From Gammaproteobacteria bacterium (GTDB lineage: Bacteria > Pseudomonadota > Gammaproteobacteria > Eutrophobiales > Eutrophobiaceae), in the NCBI GenBank assembly GCA_965204045.1, contig CBDBDW010000002.1:3139730-3203729 (forward strand): a stretch of DNA of 64,000 nt. Reading direction: 5' to 3'. Below are positions 41,629 to 60,563 of the stretch, one piece after another. Under the pieces are notes generated by a model. It worked only from the letters and a program-made list of their open reading frames with translations, made no database searches and was not told the origin of the DNA. How positions within the stretch are numbered: position 1 is the stretch's first letter; each line of letters starts with the position of its first letter. The translations under genes and the position numbers were made by a program.

Positions 41629-44103
41629 ATGAAGAACTTAACCTTGACCAGGCAACTAGGTGTATTGATCTCTGTTTTCAGCATTTCTGCTGTGCCTGTG
41701 AATGCTCAAATACTTGAAGAAATTGTTGTAACCGCTGAAAAACGGGAAGAAAAACTATCTGACGTCAGTATTTCTGTTACCGCGTTTACAGGAGAGCAGT
41801 TAAAACGGCTTGGTTACAAAACTACGCGGGAGCTGAACGGGCAGATTCCAAACCTGACAATTACCGATTTCGGAGGCGTACCCCAGACTGTGCTGGTAAC
41901 CATCCGCGGATTGACACAGGACGATTTTCTCAACCACCAGGAGTCGCCGAATTCAGTCTTTTACGATAACGCCTATAACAGTTTTCTCGGCGGTATCGGA
42001 AACCAGTTATTTGATATTGACCGCGTAGAAGTTTTACGCGGACCGCAAGGGACCCTGTTCGGAAGAAATGCAACGGGGGGACTCATCCACATTCTCACCG
42101 CAAAGCCTACGGATGAGTTCGAAGGTTATGGTGAAATAACCGCAGGTTCATATGAGATGGTCCGGTTTGAAGGAGCAATCAGCGGGCCGCTATCCGACGA
42201 ACTTTCCGGGCGGCTTTCAATTGCAACGGAGCATAACGGCGGATTTGTAGAAAACCGGGCCGACACATTGAGTGACGGTACAGTGGCCAGCGATGGCAAG
42301 GATGGCGGTAATATGGAGAACTACAGCCTGCGGTCCAGACTCTTATGGTCTCCCGGAGACGACACCGAGGTATTGATAACAGGAAGGTACTCCAGGGACG
42401 ATGACGTCAGGGCTGCAGTATATGACATTGATGCCGCCCTCAATCTTGGCGCATTCGATCCATCCATTGGCGGACCTAATGTAAATCTTCCGAATGTCGG
42501 TTCATATCCACTCAGCCAATCCGATTTCAATTCATACTGTTTAAATGTCTTCGCTGTTTCCGCTGCCGACAGTGAGGATAATTGTACCGGCAATGATGAT
42601 GACGATGATTTTGCCGGTTCTTTCAGTGACAGTTTTTTCAATCGGGAGAGTTACGGAATTACACTTGATATCAATCACTCAACGGGGGATATACAGATAA
42701 CATCCATTACTGATTTCAAGACTATTGAGCAGGATTACCGGGAGGACAGTGATGGGGTCTCCCGTACCGGGCCGGCGCTGGAAGCTGCCAGGCAGGCCTC
42801 GATTGACGGCACTCTCTTCGGTGTTCCAACCCTGCCCCCGGGGGCACCGATAGAAACTGTCATAGTGGCGGATTTTATCGGATCTGCAGATACGGATCAG
42901 TTCTCACAGGAGTTGCGTATTTCAGGTGAAAACGCTTCCCTGCAATGGCAAACAGGCGCTTATTTGCTGTACATCGATGGTGACTACACAAGCGGCTACG
43001 CTTCATTGGAAACATTCGGCGCAGCGAACGAAAATTTCTATAGTCTCGAAACGCTGAGTTATGCATTTTTTGTCGAAGCACAGTATTTTCTGACGCAGGA
43101 GGTAACTTTTATCGGAGGTGTTCGCTGGACCAGGGACGAAAAGGAATTCTCATTTATCGGTACGTGCACGAATAATACGACCGGCACTTACACATTTGAT
43201 TTTTTTGGATTGGCAGACCCCTGCGTGGATTTCGGTTTTGTCGTACCTGGAGCAGGTTTCATTCAGGACATCGGTTTCACAAAGGAAACCGCAGGTGATC
43301 TGACTGAATTGAATGACGATGCATTTTCATTTAAAGCGCAAATTGAATGGCAGCCGAATGATGACTTGTTGTTTTATGGGGGTGTGACCCGCGCAAATAA
43401 AGCTGGAAATTTCAACGCGGGTATCGCAAACAATATCGTTCCGGCCGTAGTCCCGTTTCAGCAGGAGATTCTTACTTCCTATGAGGCCGGTGTTAAAACG
43501 ACCTTGCTGAACGGAACCGTCAGGTTAAGTGCTGCAGGATTTTACTACGATTATGAAGATTACCAGGCAGCAACCTTCACGCCCGATTTTGTAAACCTGA
43601 TTTCGAATGTTGAGGCGGATGTAGTCGGTGGGGAGGTGGAAATATACGCCCAACCATTTGAAAACACGACTTTTGTGTTCGGCGCCTCATACCTCGATGC
43701 AGAAGCGGACGGTGTGCCAATTCCATTCGGTTCGGGTGAACTGGTTCCTCTCAAACAGGATATGCCGCAAGCGCCGAAATGGTCCGCAAACGGCCTGCTA
43801 CGTCAGGATTGGCCGACGACCTTCGGCAACCTGTTCACACAGATAGACTTCAACTACATAGACGAAAGGGCTACAAGTACTGCAAATTCGCCAATTGCAA
43901 CCCTTGAAAGTTATGTGTTAGCCAATCTTCGCGTAGGTATGAGCACAGCTGATGATAAATGGACTGCTACATTTTTTATTAACAACCTGACTGATACCAC
44001 CGCGATACAGAAGGCGTTTGATCTTTCATTATTTGGAGGATATCGACAACTGGTTAATGGTACGCCTCGTTGGTATGGAGGCACAATCAGGTATCAATTC
44101 TGA
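41629..44103 (+). CDS. TonB-dependent outer membrane receptor; start MKNLTL
   Basis: Plug motifs EEIVVTAEKREEKLSDVSISVTAF, VEVLRGPQGTLFGRNATGGLI; C-terminal ...RYQF. Confidence 0.85.
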   Translation: MKNLTLTRQLGVLISVFSISAVPVNAQILEEIVVTAEKREEKLSDVSISVTAFTGEQLKRLGYKTTRELNGQIPNLTITDFGGVPQTVLVTIRGLTQDDFLNHQESPNSVFYDNAYNSFLGGIGNQLFDIDRVEVLRGPQGTLFGRNATGGLIHILTAKPTDEFEGYGEITAGSYEMVRFEGAISGPLSDELSGRLSIATEHNGGFVENRADTLSDGTVASDGKDGGNMENYSLRSRLLWSPGDDTEVLITGRYSRDDDVRAAVYDIDAALNLGAFDPSIGGPNVNLPNVGSYPLSQSDFNSYCLNVFAVSAADSEDNCTGNDDDDDFAGSFSDSFFNRESYGITLDINHSTGDIQITSITDFKTIEQDYREDSDGVSRTGPALEAARQASIDGTLFGVPTLPPGAPIETVIVADFIGSADTDQFSQELRISGENASLQWQTGAYLLYIDGDYTSGYASLETFGAANENFYSLETLSYAFFVEAQYFLTQEVTFIGGVRWTRDEKEFSFIGTCTNNTTGTYTFDFFGLADPCVDFGFVVPGAGFIQDIGFTKETAGDLTELNDDAFSFKAQIEWQPNDDLLFYGGVTRANKAGNFNAGIANNIVPAVVPFQQEILTSYEAGVKTTLLNGTVRLSAAGFYYDYEDYQAATFTPDFVNLISNVEADVVGGEVEIYAQPFENTTFVFGASYLDAEADGVPIPFGSGELVPLKQDMPQAPKWSANGLLRQDWPTTFGNLFTQIDFNYIDERATSTANSPIATLESYVLANLRVGMSTADDKWTATFFINNLTDTTAIQKAFDLSLFGGYRQLVNGTPRWYGGTIRYQF

Positions 44104-44175
44104 CAATAGCATTCTGGTCAGGCAATAAAAGTAACGTAACGATTGACCTCCGTCACTACGTTACGAACAGCGCTG

Positions 44176-44300
44176 GAAAGAATGCCGATGGCCGGATTCG
44201 AAAGAATAATATAACTTGTTGTTTTTATTGTATAATAATGTTGTGCGTGGTGTCTATTGCAACATTTTTCCTAACATTATTTTGGGGCTGTATTCATGAC
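44176..44300. repeat. Repeat copy R2; carries tRNA-Leu 3'-end-like segment (minus-strand reading TTCGAATCCGGCCATCGGCATTC)
   Basis: gaatgccgatggccggattcgaa + conserved aatataacttgttg...ttttggggctgtattcatga. Confidence 0.7.
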
Positions 44301-44320
44301 GGTCCCTGTTGGCGTTGGTT

Positions 44321-44893
44321 TCAGGTGTCGTCCGGGAGTGTCTGCGTCCAACTGTTGCGTACAGTATCAATGCTGATGAACATTCTTAATGGGCGCGTCG
44401 GCAGCGACTGAAACCCCATGGCAAGATAAAATGCCCGGCGTTTTTCTGTAATATCGGGACCACCGTCCTCAATCACGTCGAGCACCACGGCCTTCAGTCC
44501 GATTTGATCGGCAGCGCCCACCGCGCGCTTTAATGCGTTTCCGAGCAGGATACTTCCTATGCCTTGCCCCTGGTGGCGACGGTCTACGGCGATCATTGAG
44601 AGGTAGGCTGTCGGGATACTTCCGGACCGGGGAGCGTGTTTCGTCAGGCTGGGCGGGAGACCCTCTCCTTCCAGCGAGTGCGCGTTCAGCGCGTAATAAC
44701 CCAGAATTTCATCTCGCCCGCCCTCAGTAGCAACCCAGACCCGTGTAAAGTCCCCCGACTGCTGTTTCCTGGCGCTACGTTTGAGAAAGTTGTCGAGCCG
44801 GACGGTCCCGCATGAGAAAGACGCCCTGTCGTGTTTCTCCGGGTCAAGCGGTGTGATGGATATCCGCCGTGGGTTCAACCCGGCTTCAGTCAC
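44321..44893 (-). CDS. GNAT-family acetyltransferase toxin (TacT-like); probable GTG start overlapping antitoxin stop
   Basis: ...ITPLDPEKHDRASFSCGTVRLDNFLKRSA..., acetyl-CoA motif RRHQGQGIGSILL. Confidence 0.7.
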   Translation of the reverse strand: MTEAGLNPRRISITPLDPEKHDRASFSCGTVRLDNFLKRSARKQQSGDFTRVWVATEGGRDEILGYYALNAHSLEGEGLPPSLTKHAPRSGSIPTAYLSMIAVDRRHQGQGIGSILLGNALKRAVGAADQIGLKAVVLDVIEDGGPDITEKRRAFYLAMGFQSLPTRPLRMFISIDTVRNSWTQTLPDDT

Positions 44894-45197
44894 CCTGCGC
44901 CACTCGGGCGTCGTGCATAGCCATAACTTTCCGCAGTGCGTCGGTCGGCGGCGCCGGCGTTTCCAGGGCAGCCAGAACCACCTCACGGTCTGCGGCAGAC
45001 AGGATCGTACGTTCATGGTCTGCAATCGTTGCCTGTGCCCGCTCAAGCGCCACGCTTGTCACGAAAGTTGTCTCATCGATACCGAGCAGGGCCGCCGCTC
45101 GCTGTATCTGCGCCTTGACGTGCGGTTTGGTTCGTTGTTCCATCCGCGCCGTTTTCGGTTCATCAATAGCGGCCGCATAATCGTCGAAATTCAGCAT
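44886..45197 (-). CDS. DUF1778-family (TacA-like, RHH) antitoxin
   Basis: 103 aa; ...KAQIQRAAALLGIDETTFVTSVALERA... Confidence 0.75.
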   Translation of the reverse strand: MLNFDDYAAAIDEPKTARMEQRTKPHVKAQIQRAAALLGIDETTFVTSVALERAQATIADHERTILSAADREVVLAALETPAPPTDALRKVMAMHDARVAQGD

Positions 45198-45301
45198 GGT
45201 CGTATCTCCATTATTTTTTGTTATTGTACGGTAATTTGCCGGACAATCAACTAATTCCTAAACGGCTAGTGGTTCAGGTTACGGGGAGAGGGTCAAGGGG
45301 G

Positions 45302-45805
45302 TCAACGTGCCTGAAGAAGTGTTTCGATACGTTGAACGGGAAGCATCAGGGTCATAGGGTCAATATGCGACACCCGGAACCCGTATCTCAGGTAAAAACG
45401 CCTGGCATCTTCTGAAATGGCGTGTACCAGCACCGCCCGGACGCCTGCATTCCGTGCAACAGCCAGTGTGCGTAACAAGGCATCTTTCAGCAGGGCAGCG
45501 CCCAGGCCTTGACCCTGCGTTGCACGTTCAACGGCCAAACGACCCAATACCATGACGGGAACGGCTTCCGGCATATTGCGGGCTATCGCCGCAGGAGCGC
45601 TGATTCGCTCGACACTCCCGCTGGCAAGAGCATAGAACCCGACTACCCGCTTACCCTCGCTGATAACAAAAGTTCTGCTGGCGCCACTGTCCTGATTTTT
45701 CAGCGCATGCTTTTTAAGCCACTCATTGAGCGCTTCATTACCACAGTCAAACTCCACCAGCAGATGACTGTCAGTCAGAGGCTCCGGGGCTTTGGCTACT
45801 CCCAT
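45302..45805 (-). CDS. GNAT-family acetyltransferase toxin (TacT-like), second paralog
   Basis: LLVEFDCGNEALNEWLKKHA N-terminus, QGQGLGAALL acetyl-CoA motif. Confidence 0.8.
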   Translation of the reverse strand: MGVAKAPEPLTDSHLLVEFDCGNEALNEWLKKHALKNQDSGASRTFVISEGKRVVGFYALASGSVERISAPAAIARNMPEAVPVMVLGRLAVERATQGQGLGAALLKDALLRTLAVARNAGVRAVLVHAISEDARRFYLRYGFRVSHIDPMTLMLPVQRIETLLQAR

Positions 45806-46059
45806 GGAGAAGGAGAAGTCAACAGGGATTTCAGCTTCTCGTTAGCAGGCGCCGGCGCTTCCAGGGCTGCGGTAAAGGCAGCAAAAGTATCATCGTCAAG
45901 TTGAAAAAGACGTTGATTGAGCAACACGTGTTCCGCTTCCCGACAGGCAACGTCCAGGATAAAAGCGCTTCTGTCCTTGTTAAGCATCGCAGCAGCTTTG
46001 GTCAACAGCGCACGCTGACCAGGTTCAACGCGCATGTTAATAGGGGCAGTTTTGGACAT
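45796..46059 (-). CDS. DUF1778-family antitoxin, second paralog; start at MSKTAPINMRVEPG
   Basis: INMRVEPGQRALLTKAAAMLNKDRSAFILDVA. Confidence 0.75.
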   Translation of the reverse strand: MSKTAPINMRVEPGQRALLTKAAAMLNKDRSAFILDVACREAEHVLLNQRLFQLDDDTFAAFTAALEAPAPANEKLKSLLTSPSPWE

Positions 46060-46164
46060 AATGATAAATCTCTTTGAATATCTTGATGCGATACATTCTA
46101 GTATAGCTATCAGATACACGCAAATGTTCCGCTCTCAGCAGAGAAATTGGAACTGCAAAAACGG

Positions 46165-46285
46165 ATAAATGGTGCCGATGGCCGGAATAGAAACTGTAAT
46201 GTAACTCGTTGTTTTTATTAAAATATAATGTAGGGCATGTTGTCTATTCCAACATTTTTTCCAACATTATTTTGTGTCCCCAAAA
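46165..46285. repeat. Repeat copy R3 (minus-strand reading ...TTCCGGCCATCGGCACCA; distal end partly inverted relative to other copies)
   Basis: ggtgccgatggccggaataga + taactcgttgtttttatt..atgttgtctattccaacattttttccaacattattttgtgtcccc. Confidence 0.65.
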
Positions 46286-46311
46286 CTATGCAATTACAGG
46301 GCCGCGGGTCA

Positions 46312-47137
46312 CTATGAAATACTTAAGTCGAAGCCGGCTGAGATTGTGTACCATGTACCTTTCCCTTTCCCGTGTTTCGTTAAATGACCATTTTTTACTA
46401 AAGAAGCAATGTGCTCTTTAATCGTCCCCCGGGCGGCACTGGTTGACTTTATGATGTCATCCATTTTGATTTGACCCCGCTCACGTGCAAGTTCCACATA
46501 ATCTACCGTTACCATCCTGAAACGGGTGGATTTGTAACAAGACAACGATAAATACCGCAATAATCAACAGGGGATGAAAAGACCGTTCTTGTAGCGCTTT
46601 ATTCGTCCACTCCTCCAACTCAGTCATCAAACGTGGTGTATCAAAAGGTGATGCCGTAGCAAAAACAACCCCGAGGCTTTTCCCGCTTTCATCAAAAGCC
46701 TCAACATGATTATCAATTTTTTTGTAGTGTCCACGATGTCTTTCGTCTTTTCCTGAATATTGAAGTAAATCACGATGCAGTTGTTTGATGTGATTTTCTG
46801 TCAGTGTGATTGCCGACCACGATGAGAAAATTGTCTCCATGACTTCTGCGTAGCCTGCCACTTCTTCTTCATCGCGTGATTGGAAGGACTTGTTCGGTAG
46901 TTCAATTAACAAGGCTTGAACCTGATTATCCGATAATTGACTTCCTTCTATCCTGGTTGAGGAACCAATGCTTTCGATTGTTGCCACACGACGTAAGGCG
47001 GATAGCCGCTCGGGGGTAAGGGTTGCCAACGCATGCCACGCCCCTTTGAACTCATCCAGTTCTGCAATAATATCGAGTATTTCCGGGGTGATATGAAGGG
47101 TATGTGTTTTAATTGTTTCAGCCATAAATCCAACCAT
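46312..47137 (-). pseudogene. fic: Decayed fic (Fido-domain) gene: Fic domain ORF ends 5 codons after the HPFQDGNGR motif and the C-terminal wHTH continues in another frame
   Basis: HPFQDGNGRLCGTCT* in one frame; overlapping ORF MRYLSLSCYK...LARERGQIKMDDIIKSTSAARGTIKEHIASLVKNGHL (wHTH); about 80 aa missing between motif and wHTH. Confidence 0.65.
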
Positions 47138-47225
47138 ATCCGGCCATAAATATCAAACAAATAATCATAAACGGTTTTCGGCCATAAATCCAGCCAAATT
47201 CAGCCATAAAAAACCGTTAAAGCCA

Positions 47226-47372
47226 GGAAATGGTGCCGATGGCCGGATTCGAATAAGTAATATAACTTGTTATTTTATCCGGGGAAAATGTTGTGAGTGG
47301 TGTCCATTACAACACTTTTCCTAACATTGTTTTGGGGCTGGTTTCATGATGATTTTGTTGTTTTTTCATCTT
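47226..47372. repeat. Repeat copy R4 (minus-strand reading ...TTCGAATCCGGCCATCGGCACCA)
   Basis: ggtgccgatggccggattcgaataagtaatataacttgtt...ttttggggctggtttcatgatgattttgttg. Confidence 0.7.
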
Positions 47373-47579
47373 TCAGCAACAGGGCAATGACGTCCTGCAG
47401 TTTTTTATCCTGGTCCTTCAGGGTTTTTTCAGAAAAAAAGAACCCTTAAAACCTGGCAAGTACCTGTTCACCTACATACAACAGGGGATTGAAACGGATA
47501 CAACCCGGGGAGACTTCCCATAATCGGTCGTCATGTTATAATCAACATTTAGAATTTAATTTCGTATATAAGAAATATT

Positions 47580-48320
47580 ATGGCTTCAGTTCGAACCGCG
47601 GACAGGACGCTGAGATTGTTCGAAGCGTTTAAGGTTGAAGGTCAGCCTTTGAGCCTGTCGGAACTGGCGGGGTTCATGAACGTGCCGATGTCCAGTTGTC
47701 ATGGCCTGGTGAATACACTAATCGAGCGTGGCTATCTTTACCACATTTCAAGAAGAAAGCTTTTATATCCGACAGGAAAAATACTGGAAGTTGCCGAAAC
47801 AATAGTAAGTAAAGATCCTCTGTTAGACAGGATCAGGCTGCCGTTATCAGCCCTTCGGGACAAATTAAAAGAGACGATCATTATCGGAATAAGAGAACAG
47901 GAGCGGGTGATGTATATTGACGTAATAGAAGGAACACATACCGTACGATACACGGCCTATCCAGGTGAATTCAAACCCTTGCATTCAAGTGCCGTTGGTA
48001 AGGCAATCCTTGCGAGCATGACGGAAAATGAGCTTGAAAAACTACTTCGCAGATTACCCCTGGAAAAAATTACGCCGATGTCAATCACTGATAAGAAACA
48101 ATTACTACAAGACTTAGATCAAGGCCGAAAGCGGGGCTATTACGAAACCCATGGGGAAAATGTGGTGGACGTGGATGCAGTGGCTGTTCCTGTGGTATCG
48201 AACAAAGACATTATCGGCATATCAGTCGCTGCTCCAAGCCACAGGATGGAAGAAGGCAGGATAGATATTGCACAGGAACTGCTCAAAACCAGGCAAACGA
48301 TTTTAGAAGAATTGAGATGA
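47580..48320 (+). CDS. IclR-family transcriptional regulator
   Basis: N-terminal HTH SLSELAGFMNVPMSSCHGLVNTL, C-terminal effector domain. Confidence 0.85.
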   Translation: MASVRTADRTLRLFEAFKVEGQPLSLSELAGFMNVPMSSCHGLVNTLIERGYLYHISRRKLLYPTGKILEVAETIVSKDPLLDRIRLPLSALRDKLKETIIIGIREQERVMYIDVIEGTHTVRYTAYPGEFKPLHSSAVGKAILASMTENELEKLLRRLPLEKITPMSITDKKQLLQDLDQGRKRGYYETHGENVVDVDAVAVPVVSNKDIIGISVAAPSHRMEEGRIDIAQELLKTRQTILEELR

Positions 48321-49090
48321 GTTCTACCGGCAGTGACCTCTCTGTTGATATCAGGGAAAAAGTTTTGCATGTAAAGATTAATCGCCCCGAAAAGCGTAAT
48401 GCACTGAGCCGCACAACCCTGAAAGAAATCGGTAATGTTTTCAATCATCACAAGTCAGACGATTCCATACTGGTTGCGGTACTGACGGGAGCAGGTGACA
48501 GGAGCTTTGCTGCAGGCGGTGATCTGAAAGACCTGGACTCCGTCCGCACGCGGGAGCTTACTGTTGACATGGTAAATACAGGTAAAACAGCACTGGATGC
48601 AATCCGTAATTTCTGTGTGCCTGTTGTCGCGGCAATAAATGGTACGGCCTTGGGTGGCGGCGCCGAGCTGGCCATGGCCTGTGATTACCGGGTTGCGGAC
48701 GAGACTGCAAAAATAGGCTTCGTGCAGGGAAAACTCAATATCACCACGGCCTGGGGAGGAGGCGCCGATTTAATGGAGCGCATCGGGTCCGCTCCGGCAA
48801 TGAAACTGCTTGCTGGTTGCAGAATTCTCGACGCAAAGGCTGCGCTGGAACTAGGTGTAATCGACGCCTGTTGTTACAGCAACCAATCTCTTGATGATTG
48901 CGTGAAAGATTTTGTCTCACCTTTTCTGGAGCGCAGCACAACTGTCATGCGCGGGTTTAAATCGCTGAGAAATCATGCGCGCAATTACTTTGTACAGTCA
49001 TTAAATGAACTTGAAACAAACAACTTCATTGAAAGCTGGTTACATGATGAGCACTGGCAGGTAGCAGGCAATATATTGAAAAAAAGTTGA
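48317..49090 (+). CDS. Enoyl-CoA hydratase/isomerase (crotonase) family protein
   Basis: INRPEKRNAL, AAINGTALGGGAELAMACD oxyanion-hole motifs. Confidence 0.85.
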   Translation: MSSTGSDLSVDIREKVLHVKINRPEKRNALSRTTLKEIGNVFNHHKSDDSILVAVLTGAGDRSFAAGGDLKDLDSVRTRELTVDMVNTGKTALDAIRNFCVPVVAAINGTALGGGAELAMACDYRVADETAKIGFVQGKLNITTAWGGGADLMERIGSAPAMKLLAGCRILDAKAALELGVIDACCYSNQSLDDCVKDFVSPFLERSTTVMRGFKSLRNHARNYFVQSLNELETNNFIESWLHDEHWQVAGNILKKS

Positions 49091-49113
49091 TGTAAATCAG
49101 CATACGAGTCGAG

Positions 49114-50727
49114 ATGAACAGTTCAAAAATATTATCACCCGATCCGGAGCAAAACCTGAATACCATAACGGGAGAAGAAACGCCGGTTCTGGTGACGGAT
49201 GACATGATAGACAGCAGGAAAATAGGGACGCCAGGCGAATATCCCTATACAAGAGGTATTTTTAACAATGGCTACCGCGGGCGTTTATGGACATTCCGGC
49301 AATATTCCGGATTCGGCACCGCGGAAGAAACCAATGAACGATACAGATTTTTACTGGACAGAGGTTCGACCGGCCTCTCAGTGGCGCTGGATTTGCCGAC
49401 ACAATGCGGTTATGACCCGGATGATGTCATGGCCACCGGTGAAATAGGAAAAGTCGGGGTCTCACTGTCCAATCTGGCTGAAGCGGAACTATTATTCGAC
49501 GGCATCGATCTGAGTAAGATATCCACATCTTTTACCATAAACGGTACAGCAGCTATCATCTATGCCATGTATCTCGCGGTCGCTGATAAGAACAACACGC
49601 CGCGCAGTGTCCTGACCGGGACCATACAGAATGACATACTGAAAGAATATGCCGCGCGCGGCACATGGATCTTTCCGGTGCGGCCTTCCATGCGTCTCAT
49701 CGCTGATTCGATACTGTATTCAAATGAACAAACACCCAGGTTCAACCCCATAAGTATCGCAGGCGCTCATGTACGGGATGCAGGCGTGAATGAAGTCGAA
49801 GAGTTGGGATATACGCTGGCTAACGGCCTGACTTATGTTGATGAACTGGTCAAGCGCGGCGCCGATCCGAACAAATTTGCCAGAAGGTTGAGTTTCTTCT
49901 TTTATGTGCATATGGGGTTTTTTGAGGAGATTGCCAAGTTTCGTGCAGGAAGAAGGTTATGGGCGAGATTGCTCAGGGAGCGTTACGGCATCACGGACCC
50001 GAAGGCGCTGATGTTCCGGTTCGGCGTTGTCTGTGGCGGGTCCTCCCTCACCGCATCACAGCCTTATAACAATATCGCCCGGGTTGCTCTTGAAAATATG
50101 GCTGCCGTCCTGGGAGGCGTGCAATCGGTGTTTACCTGCGCCTATGACGAAGCCTTTCAGATTCCGACGGAATTCAGCGCCGAAACAGCTTTGAGAACTC
50201 AGCAGATAGTTGCGTATGAAACCGGAGTCACCAAATCGGTTGATCCTCTCGGCGGCAGTTATTACGTGGAGTGGCTGACAGACCGCATGGAAGAGCAGGC
50301 GGGAAACATCATCAGGGAACTGGAGGAGTATGGCGGTGTGGAGAAAGCAATCGAAGATGGATTCATTCAATCCAGAATTGCTGAGAGCGCGCGCAACCGC
50401 AAGATCCGGAAAGACAGTGGAGAAGACGTGGTCGTAGGCGAGAATTATTACCGCAACGAAAATGAAGTAAATGATTTCGGTGAAATTTTTCAACTGGATA
50501 GCCAGGCTACCGAAAAAATCATGACCAGGCTGGATTCCGTAAGAGACCAACGTGACAATAACGAAGTGCGCAGGACATTACGGAAACTCGAAGGTTGCGC
50601 GGCAACTGAAGGAAAAAACCTGATGCCGTATATCGTTGATTGCTGTCATGCATATGCCACAGTCGGAGAAATAGTATCGAGCCTCAAGAAGCAATGGGGT
50701 GAATTCAGGGAGCCCATACGGCTTTAA
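49114..50727 (+). CDS. Acyl-CoA mutase large (substrate-binding) subunit, methylmalonyl-CoA-mutase family, without fused B12 domain
   Basis: YPYTRGIFNNGYRGRLWTFRQYSGFGTAEETNERYRFLLDRGSTGLSVALDLPT. Confidence 0.85.
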   Translation: MNSSKILSPDPEQNLNTITGEETPVLVTDDMIDSRKIGTPGEYPYTRGIFNNGYRGRLWTFRQYSGFGTAEETNERYRFLLDRGSTGLSVALDLPTQCGYDPDDVMATGEIGKVGVSLSNLAEAELLFDGIDLSKISTSFTINGTAAIIYAMYLAVADKNNTPRSVLTGTIQNDILKEYAARGTWIFPVRPSMRLIADSILYSNEQTPRFNPISIAGAHVRDAGVNEVEELGYTLANGLTYVDELVKRGADPNKFARRLSFFFYVHMGFFEEIAKFRAGRRLWARLLRERYGITDPKALMFRFGVVCGGSSLTASQPYNNIARVALENMAAVLGGVQSVFTCAYDEAFQIPTEFSAETALRTQQIVAYETGVTKSVDPLGGSYYVEWLTDRMEEQAGNIIRELEEYGGVEKAIEDGFIQSRIAESARNRKIRKDSGEDVVVGENYYRNENEVNDFGEIFQLDSQATEKIMTRLDSVRDQRDNNEVRRTLRKLEGCAATEGKNLMPYIVDCCHAYATVGEIVSSLKKQWGEFREPIRL

Positions 50728-50751
50728 TTCAGCGGATATTCGGGAGAGATA

Positions 50752-51148
50752 TATGTCGATCAGGGGAAAAAGAATACTGGTGGGTAAACCCGGGTTGGAT
50801 GGCCATGATGTCGGCGCAAAGGTGATTGCGCTGACATTACGCGATGCAGGGGCCGATGTCATCTATACAGGTCTGCGAAAAACACCGGAATACATTGCCA
50901 GAGCGGCCGTAGATGAAGATGTGGACGTGGTAGGGTTGAGTATTTTAAGCGGCAGCCACAAGGAACTCGTAAAGGCAATAAGGGCAAATCTCGACGAATT
51001 AAGCGCCGCGGATATTCCGATTTTTGTCGGCGGAACCATTCCTGCTCATGATTACGACGAACTGAAAGAATACGGGGTGGTCGCTATTTTTACTGCGGAA
51101 ATGCCCCTCGATGAAATCGTTGCAAAAATCGATACGTTATTGGCATGA
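50752..51148 (+). CDS. Cobalamin-binding small subunit of the split acyl-CoA mutase
   Basis: KRILVGKPGLDGHDVGAKV (DxHxxG B12-binding motif); GGGAGAG RBS. Confidence 0.85.
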
Positions 51149-52278
51149 AAGATTCAACAAGCGGAACAGGACCTCTTGCAGGGTTACGAATTATTGAGAT
51201 TGGTCATATGTTGGCGGGCCCCTATTGCGGGTTGTTATTAGCTGATTTAGGCGCGGAAATAATTAAAGTAGAAACGAATAAAGGTGATATATCCCGAGCG
51301 ATAGGCCCAAATTACATTGGTGAACACAATATTTATTTTGCCAGTCTGAACCGTAATAAAAAAAGCGTGGAACTGGATATTGCAACAGACGATGGAAGAC
51401 ATAAATTCAATCATCTGGTAAGCACGGCAAACGCATTAATCTGTAATCTCCGGCCCGGAGCGATCAGGAAACTGGGCCTGACGTATAATGCATTAAAGGC
51501 AATCAATCCGAAGCTGACGTGTGTTGCCTTGACCGGATTCGGGCTCGAGGGACCTTATAGTGACATGCCCGCCTACGATTATGTTATCCAGGCATTATCC
51601 GGCATTACCATGTTGACCGGAAACCCGGGGAATCCGCCCACGCGTGTCGGCTATTCTGTTGTGGATAACACCGCAGGCATGATGGGTGCAATCGGTGTCT
51701 TGGCAAAACTGGTAGAAGGCAAGGGAGGCCAGGTGGATATAGCGTTATACGACACCCTCATCTCACAGTTTAATTACATTGCCAGCGCCTGGTTGAATGC
51801 AGGAGAAAAACCCAGACGGCAAGTTGACGGCGGACATGCTTATATTGTACCGGCCCAGTTTTTCGAAACGTCAGATGGCCATGTCGCATTGTTTATAACT
51901 CATGACAGGTTTTGGCGCGATTTTTCACAGGAGGTTGGTATGCCGGAATGGATTGAAGATCCGGACTTTGCCACGATGGAAACCCGATCAAAAAATCGTA
52001 ATATTGTCGTGAACTCTGTAAAAAAGATTATGATGACTGATACAACCTCGAACTGGCTCAATCGGTTGCAGCCTCTAGGCATAGTTATAGCGGGTGTGCG
52101 CGGCATGGAAGAGGCGCTCGTCGATAAGCATGTTTCACACAGGGACATGGTAATTCAAATTCCAACTCCCGATGGTTACATTAATCTAGTTGGCAATCCG
52201 GTAAAAATATCCGGATTTCAAACACAATACCACGCGCCTCCCGGATTAGGTGAACACAACAGCATCATATTAAGTTGA
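51145..52278 (+). CDS. Family-III CoA-transferase (CaiB/BaiF type)
   Basis: GPLAGLRIIEIGHMLAGPYCGLLLADLGAEIIKVE N-terminus. Confidence 0.85.
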   Translation: MKDSTSGTGPLAGLRIIEIGHMLAGPYCGLLLADLGAEIIKVETNKGDISRAIGPNYIGEHNIYFASLNRNKKSVELDIATDDGRHKFNHLVSTANALICNLRPGAIRKLGLTYNALKAINPKLTCVALTGFGLEGPYSDMPAYDYVIQALSGITMLTGNPGNPPTRVGYSVVDNTAGMMGAIGVLAKLVEGKGGQVDIALYDTLISQFNYIASAWLNAGEKPRRQVDGGHAYIVPAQFFETSDGHVALFITHDRFWRDFSQEVGMPEWIEDPDFATMETRSKNRNIVVNSVKKIMMTDTTSNWLNRLQPLGIVIAGVRGMEEALVDKHVSHRDMVIQIPTPDGYINLVGNPVKISGFQTQYHAPPGLGEHNSIILS

Positions 52279-52284
52279 TATCCG

Positions 52285-53184
52285 ATGGCGCCACCTGATA
52301 AATCATATAAAAACCGGCTTGAACTGGCGCGTACCCTCAGTAAGATTGCCAACGCTGGTATCCATGACATTCTGGATAAGCCCCAGAAATCTACGCTGCT
52401 CGGGCGTTCCCAGAGGATAGGCATTACCGGCCCACCTGGTACCGGTAAAAGCACACTAATTGCCGGTTGGGCTGAATTCCGGCTGAAAATGGGTAAGACC
52501 ATTGGAGTGCTTGCGATTGATCCTAGCAGCCCAGCAACGCAGGGGGCGATTCTCGGAGATCGTATTCGAATGGAAAGCGTTATCGATAATGAGCGCTTCT
52601 ACCTTCGATCCATTCCAGACACGTTAAACGGCAATGGATTATGTCACAATATTGTTAATCTTCTTGACGTATTCGAGCAGTACAATTTTGACGACGTTGT
52701 GCTGGAAACGGTAGGGATAGGCCAGTCCGAACATCATATCCGTTGCTTGGTAGATACGGTGGTATTGGTATTAAATCCGCAATCAGGCGATATAATCCAG
52801 ACAATGAAGGCAGGCATAATGGAAATAGCCGATGTTTTCGTTATCAACAAGACAGATTTGGGAGGAAGCGAATTACTGGAGCGGGATATAAGTGGCGTTC
52901 TGGACTTTACGATACACGAAAATTCCTGGCGCCCGAGGATTATTAAAATATCCTGCAAAGATGACACAGGAATTCAGGAACTGAATAAATCTATTGATGA
53001 TCACTATGAGTGGGTGAAGGAAAATGTAGCTCTGGATGAAATATATAACCAGCGCCAGGACTTCCAGTTAGCACAGTTGATTTCCGGCCAGGTATGTCAC
53101 TATTTAACTCAAAATGCCGAAGTATCCAAGAATTTACGGGAAAAATACGACAATGTTACCAGGTGGATTGTTGGGTTGAAATAA
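52285..53184 (+). CDS. meaB: MeaB/ArgK-family G-protein chaperone for B12-dependent mutases
   Basis: P-loop GITGPPGTGKST; about 300 aa; adjacent to mutase subunits. Confidence 0.8.
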   Translation: MAPPDKSYKNRLELARTLSKIANAGIHDILDKPQKSTLLGRSQRIGITGPPGTGKSTLIAGWAEFRLKMGKTIGVLAIDPSSPATQGAILGDRIRMESVIDNERFYLRSIPDTLNGNGLCHNIVNLLDVFEQYNFDDVVLETVGIGQSEHHIRCLVDTVVLVLNPQSGDIIQTMKAGIMEIADVFVINKTDLGGSELLERDISGVLDFTIHENSWRPRIIKISCKDDTGIQELNKSIDDHYEWVKENVALDEIYNQRQDFQLAQLISGQVCHYLTQNAEVSKNLREKYDNVTRWIVGLK

Positions 53185-53238
53185 TCAGAAGTTCCTGAAA
53201 ATACAATTATCAATGTCCTTGGCACCAGGAGAGTTACT

Positions 53239-53691
53239 ATGAAAAAAATACATTTTGTCCTTATGACGGCAATAGCTCTGAATTTAATCATAACCCCGGT
53301 AGTCAGTTCTCCTGTACCCGAATTATTAGGGGTATGGGAAGGTACGGCAAAAAGTATTTATACAGCCGCCGGACGAAATGTCAAAAATGTCGCAGATGAA
53401 GGTGTTGTGGTAGAGCAACTGACACTTTCAATGGAAATTGATTATCAGGACGGCGCTGTATTCAGAGGCATCATGTCTTCAAGGCTGGGGGAGCATCTGC
53501 TGATTGGCTCGATTCGAAGTGATGGTAAAACAGGATATGTCACTGTTGCGGGTGGTGAAAGCGGCAGTATTGATATTCGTGCTACTCTTAGCGTCTTGAC
53601 AGAGAACGAACTGGAAGTATGTTATACCCAGGGTGAGGAAAACAATGTCATGGCAGTTGCATGTTCAATACTCACCCGGGTGTCGGAGTAG
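53239..53691 (+). CDS. Small secreted hypothetical protein
   Basis: Signal peptide MKKIHFVLMTAIALNLIITPVVSS; no motif recognised. Confidence 0.55.
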   Translation: MKKIHFVLMTAIALNLIITPVVSSPVPELLGVWEGTAKSIYTAAGRNVKNVADEGVVVEQLTLSMEIDYQDGAVFRGIMSSRLGEHLLIGSIRSDGKTGYVTVAGGESGSIDIRATLSVLTENELEVCYTQGEENNVMAVACSILTRVSE

Positions 53692-53729
53692 TTCAGTTTG
53701 CGGAATTCTTGAATTAGATGTAAAAGACC

Positions 53730-54431
53730 TTATGATTTCGTAGGTCCATCATTTTGAAGCAGGTAGTGACACCCCAGATAGGCATCGATCACCTCCTTGG
53801 GTGGCATGTCGAAGTCTCCATATTCGACGTAGGCTAGATATAAGTAGCTGCGTGCAGCCATCATCGTATAGGCCGCGACTTCGAGCTCAGTGTCCGTATA
53901 ATCCTTCAGCGTGCCATCCCGTATACTCCGCTTCATCGAAGCTACGTAGCGAGCGATGAGATCCTGAAAGTGTTTTCGATGTCCGGCGGGTGCTGCGAAT
54001 TGGGCTTCATTCAGAACGCGATGATAGCCCGGATTGTCACGCATATACTCAAAAAAGGCGATGACGGCACGCTCCTCCACCTCGCGGAAGCTCTTCGCCC
54101 CCCGGAGCGCTCCTCCGATATACTTCATGGCTTTCTGCCCGGCATATGGCAGCAATTCGTCGAGCAGATGTTGTCGCGTCTCAAAATAAAGATAGATGGT
54201 TCCCTGAGCAACATCAGCTTCGATGGCAATCCGGCCAACCGAAGCGTTCTGGTAACCACGTTCGCGGACAATCTTTTCGGCAGCATTCAGAATGCGCTCG
54301 CGCACCTGGTTCGCGCGTTCAGCACGGGTTGGCTTCCTGCGCTTTTCCGCTCGAGGCGTTGCCGCCGCCTTTTTCTTGCCAGGTGCAATCGCCTTTGGGG
54401 TTTCAAGAGCTACTTTGTTTGCTGTGCTCAT
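53730..54431 (-). CDS. TetR/AcrR-family transcriptional regulator with Lys/Ala-rich N-terminal tail
   Basis: HTH region ILNAAEKIVRERGYQNASVGRIAIEADVAQGTIYLYF. Confidence 0.8.
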   Translation of the reverse strand: MSTANKVALETPKAIAPGKKKAAATPRAEKRRKPTRAERANQVRERILNAAEKIVRERGYQNASVGRIAIEADVAQGTIYLYFETRQHLLDELLPYAGQKAMKYIGGALRGAKSFREVEERAVIAFFEYMRDNPGYHRVLNEAQFAAPAGHRKHFQDLIARYVASMKRSIRDGTLKDYTDTELEVAAYTMMAARSYLYLAYVEYGDFDMPPKEVIDAYLGCHYLLQNDGPTKS

Positions 54432-54556
54432 CGGAGCAAATTATTTGAATAGTTGATTGGAGCAAGGTGAATTATCGTTCATTTTAAAGTGATTATCCAT
54501 GAGAGCGTCTCTAAAAATTAGAGTCGCCCCTGCAGCATAGGGATGTACTGTCCTAT

Positions 54557-55364
54557 TCAGGAAACCCCAAACCAGTGTCCGTCTTTGTCAAGTGGTTCGT
54601 AATTGGGTTCGCGTTTTTCGCTGAACGCCGCGAGGGCTTCTTTTGAGTCGGGATGACCGCTCATGCGAACGGTGCCACCTTGTTCGAATTCATAGCCCGT
54701 CTTCAAATCCATCCACTCAATACGATCAAGAATGCGTTTGCTCACACGAACCGCTGTCGGGCTGTACCTGGCAATACGGGAAGCCAGTTTTTCAGCCTGT
54801 TGCATGAGTTCATCAGGTTGGCAGACAGTCACGGCCGCGCCAGCTGCTTTGAAATCCTCCGCTGTCATGGGATCTCCGGTGAAATACATGCGTCGAACAA
54901 GGGGTTGCGGCGCAATTCTCGCCAGGTGCCTTGCGCCGCCCATAACGCCGACGGTAAGCTCAGGCAAACCAAACCTGGCGTCCCTCGCCGCGACGATGAA
55001 ATCACATGACCCCGCGATGGCAAGTCCGGTCCCTAACGCGACGCCATGGACGGCGCCGATGACGGGAACAGCGCAATCCGAAATCGAGAAAAACGCTTCG
55101 CGAACTCGCCACATACGTTCAACGCCGTTCTCCGGCGTCATCGTGGTAAATTCTTCCAGGTCATTGCCGGCGCAAAAGTGCTTTCCCTCAGCGCTTAATA
55201 TGATCACGCGGACAATATCACTCAACTGGTCGACATTACTGAACAGCTCCTTGATTTCAATATACATGCCGCGATCAACAGCATTCGCTGGAGGCCGGTT
55301 AAGGCGCACATTAACGATACCATCACCCTTGTCATCAACAAGCAAATACTTGAATTCTGTCATT
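54557..55364 (-). CDS. Enoyl-CoA hydratase/isomerase family protein; start MTEFKYLLV with AGGAG RBS
   Basis: Crotonase-fold motifs NRPPANA, ...GAVHGVALGTGLAIAGSCD. Confidence 0.8.
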
Positions 55365-55403
55365 ACCCGCTCCTGTTTTAAAGTCGAAGCGCGGGGGACG
55401 CTC

Positions 55404-56579
55404 TCAGGTCGATAGCGGCCCACCTCTTCGTTTCATCGATTTATAAATATTGTTCTTTTGAATTGCAGTGGACCCGCCGAAAATAGGCAGCACCAAGGCA
55501 TCACGGACATAACGTTCCGTATCAACCTCTTTAACGTAACCATAAGCGCCAAATATAGTCTGACATTCCAGCGCCACAGATTTCGCCACTTCAGCCGCAT
55601 ACATCTTAGTCATGGAGGTTTCCAGGTCGCATGGGCGCTCCTCATTCGCCATCCAGGCGGCGTGGTAGAGCATCAAACGCGCTGAATGTACTTGCGTCGC
55701 CATGTCAGCAAGTTTGTGCTGAATCGATTGATAAGAGGCAATCGTTTTGCCAAATTGCTTACGCTCTTTGGCATACTCCCAGGCATCATACAGGGCCGCC
55801 TGCGCAACCCCAAGAGAGATTGCTGCCACTTCCAGTTTTTCCACATCCAGACCCGATCCGGTGAGCATTGACCAGCCCTGGTTCCAACCAGCTTCGCCAC
55901 CCATCAGATTTGACGCCGGGACGACAACATTATCGAAATGCACGTCAGTCGTAGCCGGGCCTTTGAAACCCATGGCATCGATCCGGGTAATCGTAACCCC
56001 GGGTGTTGAGGGTGGAACCATGACAAAAGACAAGTTTTTGTATCGATCTTCTTTTTCGCCCGACCGGCCCAGGACATATATGTATTCCACAAATTCCGCA
56101 CTGGAGCAGAAACGTTTTTCGCCATTAACGACAAGATTATCGCCAGCGCGGTGAATGGTGGTTTTCACGCCTGCCAGGTCGGCGCCGATGTCCGGTTCCG
56201 TCCATCCATAAGCGAACTGCAGTGAACCTTCAACCACCTTGGGAAGAAGCTCTTTCTTTTGTTTTTCACTCCCGCATTCAACCAAATTCATCCCCGCATA
56301 ACAGGCCGCGTTCAGATACGGAATTGAAACCGCCATGCTACGTTTCGACAATTCTTCGATGACAACCATGGTGGCGACAATGTCCCGGCCAAACCCTCCG
56401 TATTCTTCGGGGATTGTCAGGCCCATAACACCTAACTCAGCCAGCTTGTCAAAGACGTCTCGCGGAAAGTGATTCTCTTTATCCCATTCCTGTGCCGCTG
56501 AGCGCGGCATTTCATTCTCAACAAACCGTCGCAGAGTATCGCGCAACTGCCTGATATGATCGGGTTCTTCAAAGTTCAT
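55404..56579 (-). CDS. Acyl-CoA dehydrogenase
   Basis: 391 aa; conserved ACAD motifs incl. C-terminal ...QIFGGYGY..-like QTIFGAYGYVKE. Confidence 0.85.
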   Translation of the reverse strand: MNFEEPDHIRQLRDTLRRFVENEMPRSAAQEWDKENHFPRDVFDKLAELGVMGLTIPEEYGGFGRDIVATMVVIEELSKRSMAVSIPYLNAACYAGMNLVECGSEKQKKELLPKVVEGSLQFAYGWTEPDIGADLAGVKTTIHRAGDNLVVNGEKRFCSSAEFVEYIYVLGRSGEKEDRYKNLSFVMVPPSTPGVTITRIDAMGFKGPATTDVHFDNVVVPASNLMGGEAGWNQGWSMLTGSGLDVEKLEVAAISLGVAQAALYDAWEYAKERKQFGKTIASYQSIQHKLADMATQVHSARLMLYHAAWMANEERPCDLETSMTKMYAAEVAKSVALECQTIFGAYGYVKEVDTERYVRDALVLPIFGGSTAIQKNNIYKSMKRRGGPLST

Positions 56580-56649
56580 GTATCTACCTTGCCTTGCGCC
56601 AAAGGGCGCCTGAGAAATTATTGTGTTTCAGCCGATGCCGTCCAGGCGA

Positions 56650-57879
56650 TTACTGCTCCCAAAGCTCCGTCGATCGCGCAAGTTCCAGTCTTGAAATCGT
56701 ATGCAAATGCACCTCGTCGGGCCCATCAAAAATCCGCATACCGCGCGCCATCGCATAAAAGTGAGCCAGACCGAAGTCCTGACTGACGCCGGCGCCGCCA
56801 TGTACCTGTATCGCACGGTCAATGACTTTTTGCGCCATGTTCGGCCCCAATACCTTGATCATGGCAATTTCTGACTTCGCGACCTTATTACCAACGGTGT
56901 CCATCATGTAGGCCGCCTTGAGGCAAAGCAGACGCGCTTGTTCAATATCGATTCTGGAATGAGCTATCCCCTCCCGCAGCGAACCCTGCTCCGCCAGTGG
57001 CTTGCCGAATGCGATACGCGCTTTGGCACGCGCTATCAGGGAATCCAATGCGCGTTCGGCCTGGCCGATGACACGCATACAATGATGGATGCGGCCAGGG
57101 CCAAGGCGACCCTGGGCTATCTCAAATCCACGCCCCTCGCCCAGCAGTATGTTCTCTTTGGGCACACGCACATTTTTAAAATCAACCTCCCAGTGGCCGA
57201 AGGGCGCATGATCATAACCAAATACCGTTAACGGCCTGAGTATCTCAACCCCTTTGGTCCCGACCGGCACCAGGATCTGCGACTGCTGTTGGTGTTTGGC
57301 CGCCGAGGGGTCGGTTTTCCCCATTACAATGAGAACTTTGCAGCGCTTGTCGCCTGCGCTGGACGACCACCACTTGCGTCCATTGATGACATAATCATCA
57401 CCATCACGCTTTATCTCTGTTTCGATATTCGTCGCATCGGATGAGGCCACAGCAGGTTCAGTCATGCAGAAGGAAGAACGAATTTCACCAGCCAGCAGCG
57501 GCTTCAGCCACTGCTCTTGCTGGGCAGCGGTGCCATACCGCTCGAGCACTTCCATATTGCCGGTGTCCGGGGCCGAACAGTTGAAAGTCTCCGGACCAAT
57601 CCAGCTTCGCCCCATGAGCTCGCAGAGCGGCGCATATTCGACATTGGTGAGGCCAGCGCCCAGGTCACTCTCAGGCAAAAACAGATTCCACAATCCCTGT
57701 GCCCTCGCCTTTTGTTTCAACTCTTCCAGGACAGGCGGGATGTCCCAACGGTCAGCCTGAGCTGCATGTTGTTCCTCGTAAACGCGCTCGGCTGGATATA
57801 CATGCTCATCCATGAACGCCGAAACCCGCTCTATGAGCTTTTTGGTCTTTTCTGAATGTTCGAAATACATGGCTGGCAC
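56650..57879 (-). CDS. Acyl-CoA dehydrogenase (ACAD10/11 C-terminal type)
   Basis: 409 aa; ...[23 protein letters not shown]. Confidence 0.85.
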
Positions 57880-57900
57880 GCCCTCTACTCTCTTACGTAA

Positions 57901-58953: not shown

Positions 58954-58964
58954 CGCCGCCTTCC

Positions 58965-59378
58965 CTACTCCGCAGGCTTGAATTTAGGCAATTTGAATTC
59001 ATCGCCGGCCTGCTCAAAGGTCACTTCGACGCGCATATCCCCGGCGATTTTTTCGTGCTCGCATTCAATGATGTTGGATACCATGCGAACGCCTTCGTCG
59101 AGTTCGATCAGCCCCACTGCGTAGGGAACGTCGTCGCCCCATATATTGGCTGGAACGGGATGGTTGACAATAATCCAGCTGAACACTTTGCCTTTGCCGG
59201 AGGCTTCAACCCAATCGTAGGAACCCGATCGGCAATTTGCGCAATAATGCATCGCCGGAAATCGGTGCGTTCCACATACATTACACTTTTGAATGACCAG
59301 ACGCTCTTCTTTGCAAGCAGACCAGAAAGGCTCGCTTTGAATGTCAACAACCGGAAGCGGTTTCACGTAGTTGGACAT
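58965..59378 (-). CDS. Zn-ribbon/OB-fold protein (DUF35), thiolase-associated
   Basis: CNVCGTHRFPAMHYCANC zinc ribbon followed by OB-fold; precedes thiolase. Confidence 0.8.
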   Translation of the reverse strand: MSNYVKPLPVVDIQSEPFWSACKEERLVIQKCNVCGTHRFPAMHYCANCRSGSYDWVEASGKGKVFSWIIVNHPVPANIWGDDVPYAVGLIELDEGVRMVSNIIECEHEKIAGDMRVEVTFEQAGDEFKLPKFKPAE

Positions 59379-59382
59379 AGCG

Positions 59383-60549: not shown

Positions 60550-60563
60550 TGGGACTCTCTTGA

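Follow-up and report, generated by a model that had tools for sequence, protein, structure and literature searches.

To our knowledge, B12-dependent acyl-coenzyme A (acyl-CoA) mutases act on methylmalonyl-, ethylmalonyl-, isobutyryl-, 2-hydroxyisobutyryl-, or pivalyl-CoA, and phenylsuccinyl- and hexylmalonyl-CoA have been proposed as further substrates. Here, we describe a six-gene operon (positions 47580 to 53184, plus strand) in a 64,000-nucleotide stretch of DNA, referred to as the window, from a gammaproteobacterium of the family Eutrophobiaceae (contig CBDBDW010000002.1). The operon encodes an IclR-family regulator, a crotonase-fold protein, the large and small subunits of a split mutase, a family-III CoA-transferase, and a MeaB-type G-protein chaperone. 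The gene ends overlap or almost abut, and all six genes were found where an initial annotation of this DNA had placed them. The large subunit belongs to a widespread and previously uncharacterized subfamily of split adenosylcobalamin (AdoCbl)-dependent acyl-CoA mutases.

The nearest sequence relatives of the window enzyme are the split methylmalonyl-CoA mutases (MCM) and isobutyryl-CoA mutases (ICM). Like the window enzyme, they consist of a large subunit of ~530 to 560 amino acids and a B12-binding subunit of ~130 to 140 amino acids, often with MeaB, and the MCM-type members share its Tyr89 and Arg207 (positions are those of P. shermanii MCM, assigned by alignment; in PDB 1REQ, the chain index plus 1 gives the literature number). 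Unlike the clade of the window enzyme, however, these relatives have no adjacent gene for a crotonase, a family-III CoA-transferase, or an IclR regulator. 2-Hydroxyisobutyryl-CoA mutase (HCM; HcmAB, PDB 4R3U) also has split subunits and a MeaB-like chaperone. Its substrate is an uncharged hydroxy ester, the hydroxyl group of which is bound by Asp117. HCM has Ile90, Asp117, and Gln208, whereas Tyr, Ala (Ala116), and Arg occupy those positions in the window enzyme. The combination of Phe or Ile at position 89 with Gln207, typical of ICM and HCM, is replaced by Tyr and Arg, and an identity as ICM or HCM was therefore rejected.

Ethylmalonyl-CoA mutase (ECM) acts on malonyl-CoA with one extra methyl group and serves the anabolic ethylmalonyl-CoA pathway. 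We recovered a genuine MeaA, a fused protein of 672 amino acids, from a Methylobacterium aquaticum replicon. Its identity was confirmed by source names: the protein and its relatives, including an 85%-identical Methylorubrum extorquens protein, are called "protein meaA / (2R)-ethylmalonyl-CoA mutase." ECMs are fused single chains of 672 to 688 amino acids that are 38-39% identical to the split window enzyme.

Two kinds of system resemble the operon as a whole. In Escherichia coli, scpA-argK-scpB-scpC (Sbm) likewise combines a B12 mutase, a G-protein chaperone, a crotonase-fold enzyme, and a CoA-transferase in one operon. However, ScpA is a canonical fused MCM, unlike the split mutase of the window, and ScpC presumably belongs to a CoA-transferase family other than the family III (PF02515) of the window protein. 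In the anaerobic degradation of indoleacetate, the Iaa system pairs the split mutase IaaGH (phenylsuccinyl-/benzylmalonyl-CoA) with the family-III CoA-transferase IaaL, which uses succinyl-CoA (PMC8360864), and MatBQ, ActD, and LydIN are proposed hexylmalonyl-CoA mutases of matlystatin, actinonin, and lydiamycin biosynthesis (PMC5719088, PMC12130866). All of these are described or proposed as split B12 mutases for bulky substituted succinyl- or malonyl-CoA, and their likeness to the window enzyme is one of reported function. In the Iaa pathway, the carboxyl group is removed by the acyl-CoA dehydrogenase (ACAD) IaaF, whereas the window module has a crotonase instead; no ACAD gene belongs to the conserved module, and two lie in a neighboring divergent cluster of the window. 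The hexylmalonyl clusters are biosynthetic and contain a carboxylase-reductase and an epimerase, both of which are absent from the window operon.

Active site and phylogeny of the mutase large subunit

The large subunit (537 amino acids; 49114-50727, plus strand; PF01642, E = 1e-191) is the substrate-binding TIM-barrel chain and contains the motif FRQYSGFG at residues 61-68 (49294-49317). We compared a clade of at least 132 sequences, 67-95% identical to the window large subunit, with 68 split MCM/ICM relatives (47-54% identity), which came from archaea, Firmicutes, and Chloroflexi, among others. When aligned with P. shermanii MCM, the protein showed a Tyr/Arg carboxylate-binding signature, in line with the Tyr variant reported in the initial annotation: Tyr64, Arg182, His219, Gln172, and Glu346 of the window protein correspond to Tyr89, Arg207, His244, Gln197, and Glu370, each of which was retained in 132/132 clade sequences. 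The same annotation had taken it as anomalous that a mutase of the Tyr type should be split and have a separate MeaB. Tyr89/Arg207 was found in 29 of the 68 split relatives (Phe89/Gln207 in the other 39), many of them with an adjacent small subunit and MeaB, and this arrangement is thus commonplace.

The unusual residues lie elsewhere in the barrel. We looked for positions at which the clade is fixed for one residue and the 68 split relatives for another, and obtained a short list clustered in the active-site barrel: Phe117Leu, Ser241Ala, Tyr243Ala, Glu247Asp, His328Gly, Gln330Val, Thr331Cys, His364Phe, Asn366Cys, and Leu374Ile. Positions 241, 243, and 330 were replaced in all 132 clade sequences, and positions 117, 247, 328, 364, and 366 in at least 96% of them. 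By contrast, the split relatives had the canonical residue in 68/68 sequences at positions 117, 241, 243, 247, 328, 330, 331, and 364, and Asn366 in 65/68 (Asp in the other three). MCM of P. shermanii, human, and E. coli likewise had the canonical residues, as did HcmA except at Leu374 (Ile). In the window protein, the remodeled residues are Ala216 and Ala218 (49759-49767), Gly304, Val306, and Cys307 (50023-50034), and Phe340 and Cys342 (50131-50139), all on the plus strand. In an AlphaFold model (mean pLDDT 77.9, pTM 0.84), the changed residues were located at alternating positions on barrel strands 210-216, 302-307, and 338-341; judged from MCM structures, their side chains probably face the acyl/deoxyadenosyl cavity. 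In MCM structures, Tyr243 is near both the substrate and the corrin. Judged from the alignment, this rebuilt pocket (Tyr243, His328, Gln330, His364, and Asn366) is the truly unusual feature of the operon, and it was absent from the initial annotation.

HCM retains Tyr243, His328, Gln330, His364, and Asn366, all five of which are replaced in the window enzyme. ECM shares Tyr89/Arg207 and His328Gly with the window enzyme and is altered on the same two strands (328-334 and 360-366), with His328Gly, Thr331Val, His364Gln, and Asn366Pro. The ECM signature, however, comprises Cys241, Gly328, Val331, Asn332, Leu334, Gln364, Pro366, and a short KRAR insertion; of its pocket residues, Gly328 alone is shared, and Tyr243 and Gln330 were retained in 120/120 ECM sequences. 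The window clade also removes more pocket bulk and polarity than ECM does. An identity as ECM was rejected, as neither the fused architecture nor the pocket signature was found, and the grouping with ECM in the initial annotation did not survive this comparison. Because ECM, which accommodates one extra methyl group, is altered on the same strands and also carries His328Gly, it is the strongest indirect indication that a substituent is accommodated at these positions; by analogy, this suggests that the signature positions set the space available to it.

In a neighbor-joining tree, the clade was monophyletic with a long stem and was placed outside the split MCM and ICM, HcmA, and the fused MCMs. 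Its members were found in Gamma-, Beta-, and Alphaproteobacteria (Marinobacter, Billgrantia/Halomonas, Paraburkholderia, Diaphorobacter, Ramlibacter, Sulfitobacter, Hyphomicrobiaceae, and many metagenome-assembled genomes). The window large subunit scored 550 bits against the MCM equivalog NF006944, a model built on the fused enzyme with a cutoff of 876 bits. The best match among solved structures was HcmA (PDB 4R3U; 480 bits, 45% identity).

Furthermore, a sister group was identified in Actinobacteria, consisting of a Streptomyces sp. N50 homologue (55% identity by tblastn; locus L174) and 120 relatives that are 84-98% identical to this protein (Streptomyces, Actinomadura, Nocardia, Rhodococcus, Mycobacterium, and Frankia). 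The signature of these 120 sequences was Leu117, Ala241, Ala243 (116/120; Ser in 4), Asp247, Gly328, Val330, Ala/Ser/Cys331, Phe364, and Ala366. In Mycobacterium celatum (L175/L176), the genes for the mutase large subunit, the small subunit, a luciferase-like monooxygenase, and a family-III CoA-transferase follow in this order. The CoA-transferase is an orthologue of that of the window (48% identity), and a crotonase encoded 5 kb away likewise lacks the second catalytic Glu described below. Because the sister group has the same signature and the CoA-transferase partner, the remodeled pocket and this partnership are, as far as the sequences indicate, ancient and conserved across phyla. The sister group shows an unusual degree of sequence conservation, and it was linked to genes for luciferase-like monooxygenases, family-III CoA-transferases, short-chain dehydrogenases/reductases, and acyl-CoA ligases.

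Partner proteins and gene context

Gene families were assigned with Pfam and NCBIfam; the E-values for the operon proteins were far past chance level, and the operon recurred on dozens of unrelated contigs. The crotonase-fold protein (257 amino acids; 48317-49090, plus strand; PF00378, E = 4e-41), the ATG of which overlaps the IclR stop codon, retains the oxyanion-hole motifs and Glu117 (48665-48667) but has Gln137 (48725-48727) in place of the second catalytic Glu. Among proteins of solved structure, the Nitrosopumilus crotonyl-CoA hydratase Nmar_1308 is nearest to it; in that enzyme, Gly109, Glu112, and Glu132 are catalytic and Glu132 protonates C2 (PMC8613188). Among 30 operon-linked orthologues of the window protein, Glu117, which corresponds to Glu112, was present in 30/30, and the Glu132 equivalent was Gln in 27, His in 3, and Glu in none. 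A canonical enoyl-CoA hydratase was therefore rejected, and the label "hydratase" in the initial annotation does not fit any of the 30. The protein also conserves Arg212, Glu233, Trp241, His246, and Trp247, of which the last three form a C-terminal motif. An orthologous relationship to E. coli ScpB was rejected as well: the identity is 22%, and Gly and Thr are aligned with His66 and Tyr140, the catalytic residues of this methylmalonyl-CoA decarboxylase. The window protein may nevertheless decarboxylate by means of other residues. No structure of an ECHDC1-like decarboxylase was among the top PDB hits.

The CoA-transferase (377 amino acids; 51145-52278, plus strand; PF02515, E = 2e-109) overlaps the small-subunit gene by 4 bp. 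Its best NCBIfam and PDB matches were dicarboxylate enzymes (YfdE oxalate, succinate-glutarate, and succinyl-CoA:mesaconate CoA-transferases, and SUGCT). It scored 250 bits with the NCBIfam model of the oxalate enzyme (cutoff 522), 241 bits with that of the glutarate enzyme (cutoff 750), and 232 bits with that of the mesaconate enzyme (cutoff 700), and the protein was below every NCBIfam equivalog cutoff, including those for the oxalate, glutarate, mesaconate, and formyl-CoA specificities. The regulator (246 amino acids; 47580-48320, plus strand), the first gene of the operon, has the IclR domains PF09339 (HTH_IclR) and PF01614 (IclR_C) and was also below the cutoff of every NCBIfam equivalog.

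The small subunit (PF02310, TIGR00640; plus strand) carries the B12-binding motif DxHxxG as DGHDVG. The open reading frame (ORF) list placed its start at GTG 50699, with a 29-bp overlap with the large subunit, whereas gene callers chose ATG 50753 in identical contigs. The ATG is most likely the start, as the resulting protein of 131 amino acids (50753-51148) suits the family length better; counted from it, DGHDVG occupies residues 16-21. The MeaB-type chaperone (299 amino acids; 52285-53184, plus strand; PF03308, E = 7e-65) has an intact P-loop, GPPGTGKST.

Gene context was then compared between 36 clade loci and 129 other loci with split mutases; each feature was scored only where the flanking DNA was long enough. 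A crotonase gene lay directly upstream on the same strand in 29/32 clade loci and 0/113 others. Similarly, a family-III CoA-transferase was encoded in 15/23 clade loci compared with 0/90 others, and an IclR gene was present within 3.5 kb in 13/24 compared with 0/98. The small-subunit gene, located downstream in the clade, was found in 23/23 clade loci and 56/90 others, and MeaB in 20/23 and 32/90, respectively. No propionate-pathway context was seen among the 36 clade loci. The view of the initial annotation that the enzyme is not a canonical MCM was thus upheld on both counts, as the tree did not place it inside the canonical MCMs and synteny revealed no propionate context. Together with the pocket residues, these results led us to reject a canonical MCM of the propionate pathway.

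The composition of the operon varied among relatives. An 84%-identical relative had the crotonase, mutase, and MeaB genes alone. Paraburkholderia largidicola and a metagenomic locus of alphaproteobacterial type had TRAP transporter genes in or beside the operon, and an MFS transporter gene adjoins it in Billgrantia pellis. In a 90%-identical relative (L001), a racemase-like gene lies within the operon, with genes for an acyl-CoA ligase and a GlcDEF-type oxidase upstream. A second B12-binding small-subunit gene (L001 1-382, minus strand), located ~8 kb upstream of that operon at the edge of the locus, hints at a second split mutase nearby. Some apparent neighbor families in high-GC loci were antisense-ORF artifacts.

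Proposed pathway and alternative explanations

The evidence tips somewhat in favor of an IclR-controlled, self-contained module for dicarboxylate catabolism, built around a mutase of new specificity. The substrate is probably a succinyl- or malonyl-CoA with an additional hydrophobic group that is bigger than the methyl group accommodated by ECM. The retained carboxylate clamp (Tyr/Arg) and His244 point to an acidic substrate, and the smaller side chains and hydrophobic character of the barrel wall (Tyr243Ala, Ser241Ala, His328Gly, Gln330Val, Thr331Cys, Asn366Cys, and His364Phe) point to an additional non-polar group. In the proposed pathway, a dicarboxylic acid would be taken up, in some relatives by the TRAP or MFS transporters encoded in or next to the operon, and would be converted to its CoA thioester by the family-III CoA-transferase. 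The mutase, loaded and protected by MeaB, would then catalyze a 1,2-shift of the thioester carbon by which a substituted succinyl-CoA is interconverted with its substituted malonyl-CoA isomer, with flux presumably toward the latter. Finally, the crotonase-fold partner would act on this isomer. Decarboxylation to a monocarboxylic acyl-CoA, which could enter beta-oxidation, is the most likely outcome; epimerization is a less likely alternative.

We infer that the crotonase decarboxylates or epimerizes a malonyl-type thioester because such chemistry needs just an oxyanion hole and one acid/base residue, because its gene is so closely linked to that of the mutase, and because ScpB provides a precedent. 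ECHDC1, a mammalian ethylmalonyl-CoA decarboxylase with the crotonase fold, is a further precedent. The proposed module would mirror the E. coli Sbm operon role for role with non-orthologous parts, and it would also parallel the steps of IaaL and IaaGH and the proposed hexylmalonyl-CoA mutases, which are precedents for split mutases with bulky substituted succinyl- or malonyl-CoA substrates. A more specific proposal is that the proteobacterial clade and its actinobacterial sister catalyze a new mutase reaction, the rearrangement of a carboxylated CoA ester whose substituent is both bulky and hydrophobic. Examples of such esters are alkyl- and aryl-succinyl-CoA and 2,2-disubstituted malonyl-CoA, which has a quaternary carbon. 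The mutase would work together with its own dicarboxylate CoA-transferase and with a crotonase-fold enzyme of a new kind, either a decarboxylase or an epimerase. We judge the chances of this proposal to be evenly balanced.

Several observations weigh against the dicarboxylate module with a new mutase specificity. In MCM structures, Gln330, Asn366, Phe117, and Leu374 are contacts of the deoxyadenosyl group and not of the substrate, and the remodeling could concern cofactor handling rather than substrate size. With its low identity to ScpB and the Gly and Thr at His66 and Tyr140, the crotonase is called a decarboxylase on logic and not on homology. Clustering of ORFs at 37 clade loci revealed no recurring, substrate-diagnostic gene beyond the six core genes. 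In addition, the contexts of the closest relatives differ, with the ligase, GlcDEF-like oxidase, and racemase-like genes in L001 and the luciferase-like monooxygenase in Actinobacteria. The physiological substrate may vary among the relatives.

If the mutase were an ordinary MCM, the operon would be a non-orthologous counterpart of the E. coli "sleeping beauty" operon, and the pocket changes would be neutral or related to the cofactor. Succinate would be converted via the CoA-transferase to methylmalonyl-CoA, which the crotonase would decarboxylate to propionyl-CoA, or the route would run in reverse to salvage methylmalonate. The intact Tyr89/Arg207/His244/Gln197 core is compatible with this explanation, as are the same four functional roles in scpA-argK-scpB-scpC and the name "methylmalonyl-CoA mutase family protein" given to relatives by the sources. 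We nevertheless regard it as unlikely. Nine positions that are invariant or almost so in all MCM, split MCM, ICM-type, and HCM sequences compared are replaced at a level of at least 96% across the 132 clade sequences, and the replacements recur in the actinobacterial sister; such near fixation argues for purifying selection for a different pocket and not for drift. The score of the large subunit is far below the MCM equivalog cutoff, the crotonase is not an orthologue of ScpB, and Tyr243Ala reportedly damages MCM in published mutagenesis.

Two other explanations accept a different substrate. The operon could encode a catabolic analogue of the ECM route, in which methylsuccinate or ethylmalonate would be activated by the CoA-transferase and isomerized, and ethylmalonyl-CoA would be decarboxylated to butyryl-CoA by the crotonase. 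This explanation draws on the His328Gly shared with true ECM, the changes on the same strands, the resemblance of the CoA-transferase to C5-dicarboxylate (mesaconate and glutarate) transferases, and the ethylmalonyl-CoA decarboxylase activity of ECHDC1. However, the 38-39% identity to MeaA, the split architecture, and the absence of Cys241, Val331, Asn332, Gln364, Pro366, and the KRAR insertion make it improbable, and the loss of Tyr243 and Gln330, both kept in ECM, suggests more room than one methyl group needs. Alternatively, the crotonase could act first as a hydratase on an unsaturated dicarboxyl-CoA (itaconyl-CoA, for instance, would give 2-hydroxymethylsuccinyl-CoA), and the mutase would rearrange the hydroxy-dicarboxyl-CoA to, for example, 2-hydroxyglutaryl-CoA; CoA would be recycled by the CoA-transferase, and a 2-hydroxyacid oxidase would yield 2-oxoglutarate. 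In such a scheme, the three conserved enzymes, and no others, would make up a closed cycle, and in L001 an acyl-CoA ligase and a GlcD/E/F-type 2-hydroxyacid oxidase are encoded directly upstream. Yet the crotonase is without the Glu that protonates C2 in hydration, and the new pocket residues are hydrophobic instead of hydrogen-bonding as in HCM, where Asp117 holds the hydroxyl group. Moreover, the GlcDEF genes of L001 are 522 bp from the operon and were not found near other clade loci. We therefore consider this scheme very unlikely.

Surrounding DNA, related mutases, and implications

Upstream of the operon, a consensus scan gave a promoter-like site (TTCCCA-16-TATAAT with TG; 47515-47542, plus strand), and an 18-bp palindrome, ATTTCGTATATAAGAAAT (47559-47576, plus strand), is located directly 5' of the IclR start. 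Since the scan overall scored no better than shuffled sequence, 47515-47576 is a weak candidate for a promoter/operator. No B12 riboswitch or other RNA was found in positions 44000-55000 of the window. Downstream, a gene for a protein of 150 amino acids with a hydrophobic, signal-like N-terminus (53239-53691, plus strand) begins 54 bp past MeaB. It has no Pfam or NCBIfam match and was seen solely in near-identical contigs, and its membership in the operon is doubtful; the region is closed beyond it by a convergent TetR gene. The G+C content of 47580-53691 was 0.473, compared with 0.551 for the remaining window (~8 percentage points lower). In addition, the operon copy on a Marinobacter sp. M3C plasmid was flanked by IS5, IS630, and IS21 elements and included an added adenosyltransferase gene. 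The low G+C content and this plasmid-borne relative suggest that the module is horizontally mobile.

Strains differ in the stretch from the TonB-dependent receptor gene to the IclR gene (44100-47234, especially 46147-47137), where two GNAT genes and one Fic gene are located. This stretch was missing from two otherwise 99.4%-identical contigs (L082 and L084), and the Fic gene has a 268-bp deletion relative to L083, leaving an ORF of 218 amino acids instead of 360. On the other side, a divergently regulated cluster (53730-62200, minus strand) adjoins the operon. It encodes TetR, a crotonase, two ACADs, an APH-family phosphotransferase, a DUF35/ChsH2-type OB-fold protein, an SCP-x-type thiolase, and another crotonase. 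The pair of kinase and ACAD resembles 4-hydroxyacyl-CoA catabolism (LvaA/ACAD10-11), and the thiolase with DUF35 resembles Bbs/steroid side-chain beta-oxidation. A related ACAD gene adjoins the operon in L001, and thiolase and DUF35 genes adjoin it in L087.

Other split mutases were also inspected. A Streptomyces canus plasmid mutase considered as a reference for the hexylmalonyl type had the canonical signature and was uninformative, and the mutase named in a Novosphingobium estrogen paper proved to be an ordinary MCM. The split mutase of a Sphingobium sp. TomMM7A plasmid (L092, 6803-8524) has Val89, Val207, Ala243, Met328, Ser330, and Pro366, with neighboring genes for a P450, APH plus ACAD, and a 7-alpha-hydroxysteroid dehydrogenase. 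That of Pseudosulfitobacter pseudonitzschiae pSMR1-4 (L091, 6932-8623) has Leu89, Asn207, and Gln243 and lies near genes for a biotin carboxylase/carboxyltransferase, a CoA ester lyase, and a PrpD-like protein. Both enzymes are divergent (35-36% identical to the window enzyme), each has a non-canonical pocket of its own, and they look like further uncharacterized specificities.

Every new mutase specificity so far has exposed a pathway and provided a tool for carbon-skeleton engineering. The clade described here changes residues kept by the characterized mutases, including Tyr243 and Gln330, and the changes are strongly conserved in two phyla, which makes it a concrete and testable candidate for a B12-dependent rearrangement of a new kind. 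In addition, nature has tested in this clade which of the "invariant" active-site residues are truly needed for radical catalysis. Cultured carriers (Paraburkholderia caribensis MBA4, P. largidicola, Marinobacter sp. M3C, Billgrantia spp., Sulfitobacter dubius, and Diaphorobacter) make the operon tractable. If the more specific proposal of a new mutase reaction is correct, branched dicarboxylic acids would be processed by a widespread aerobic route that has so far been overlooked.

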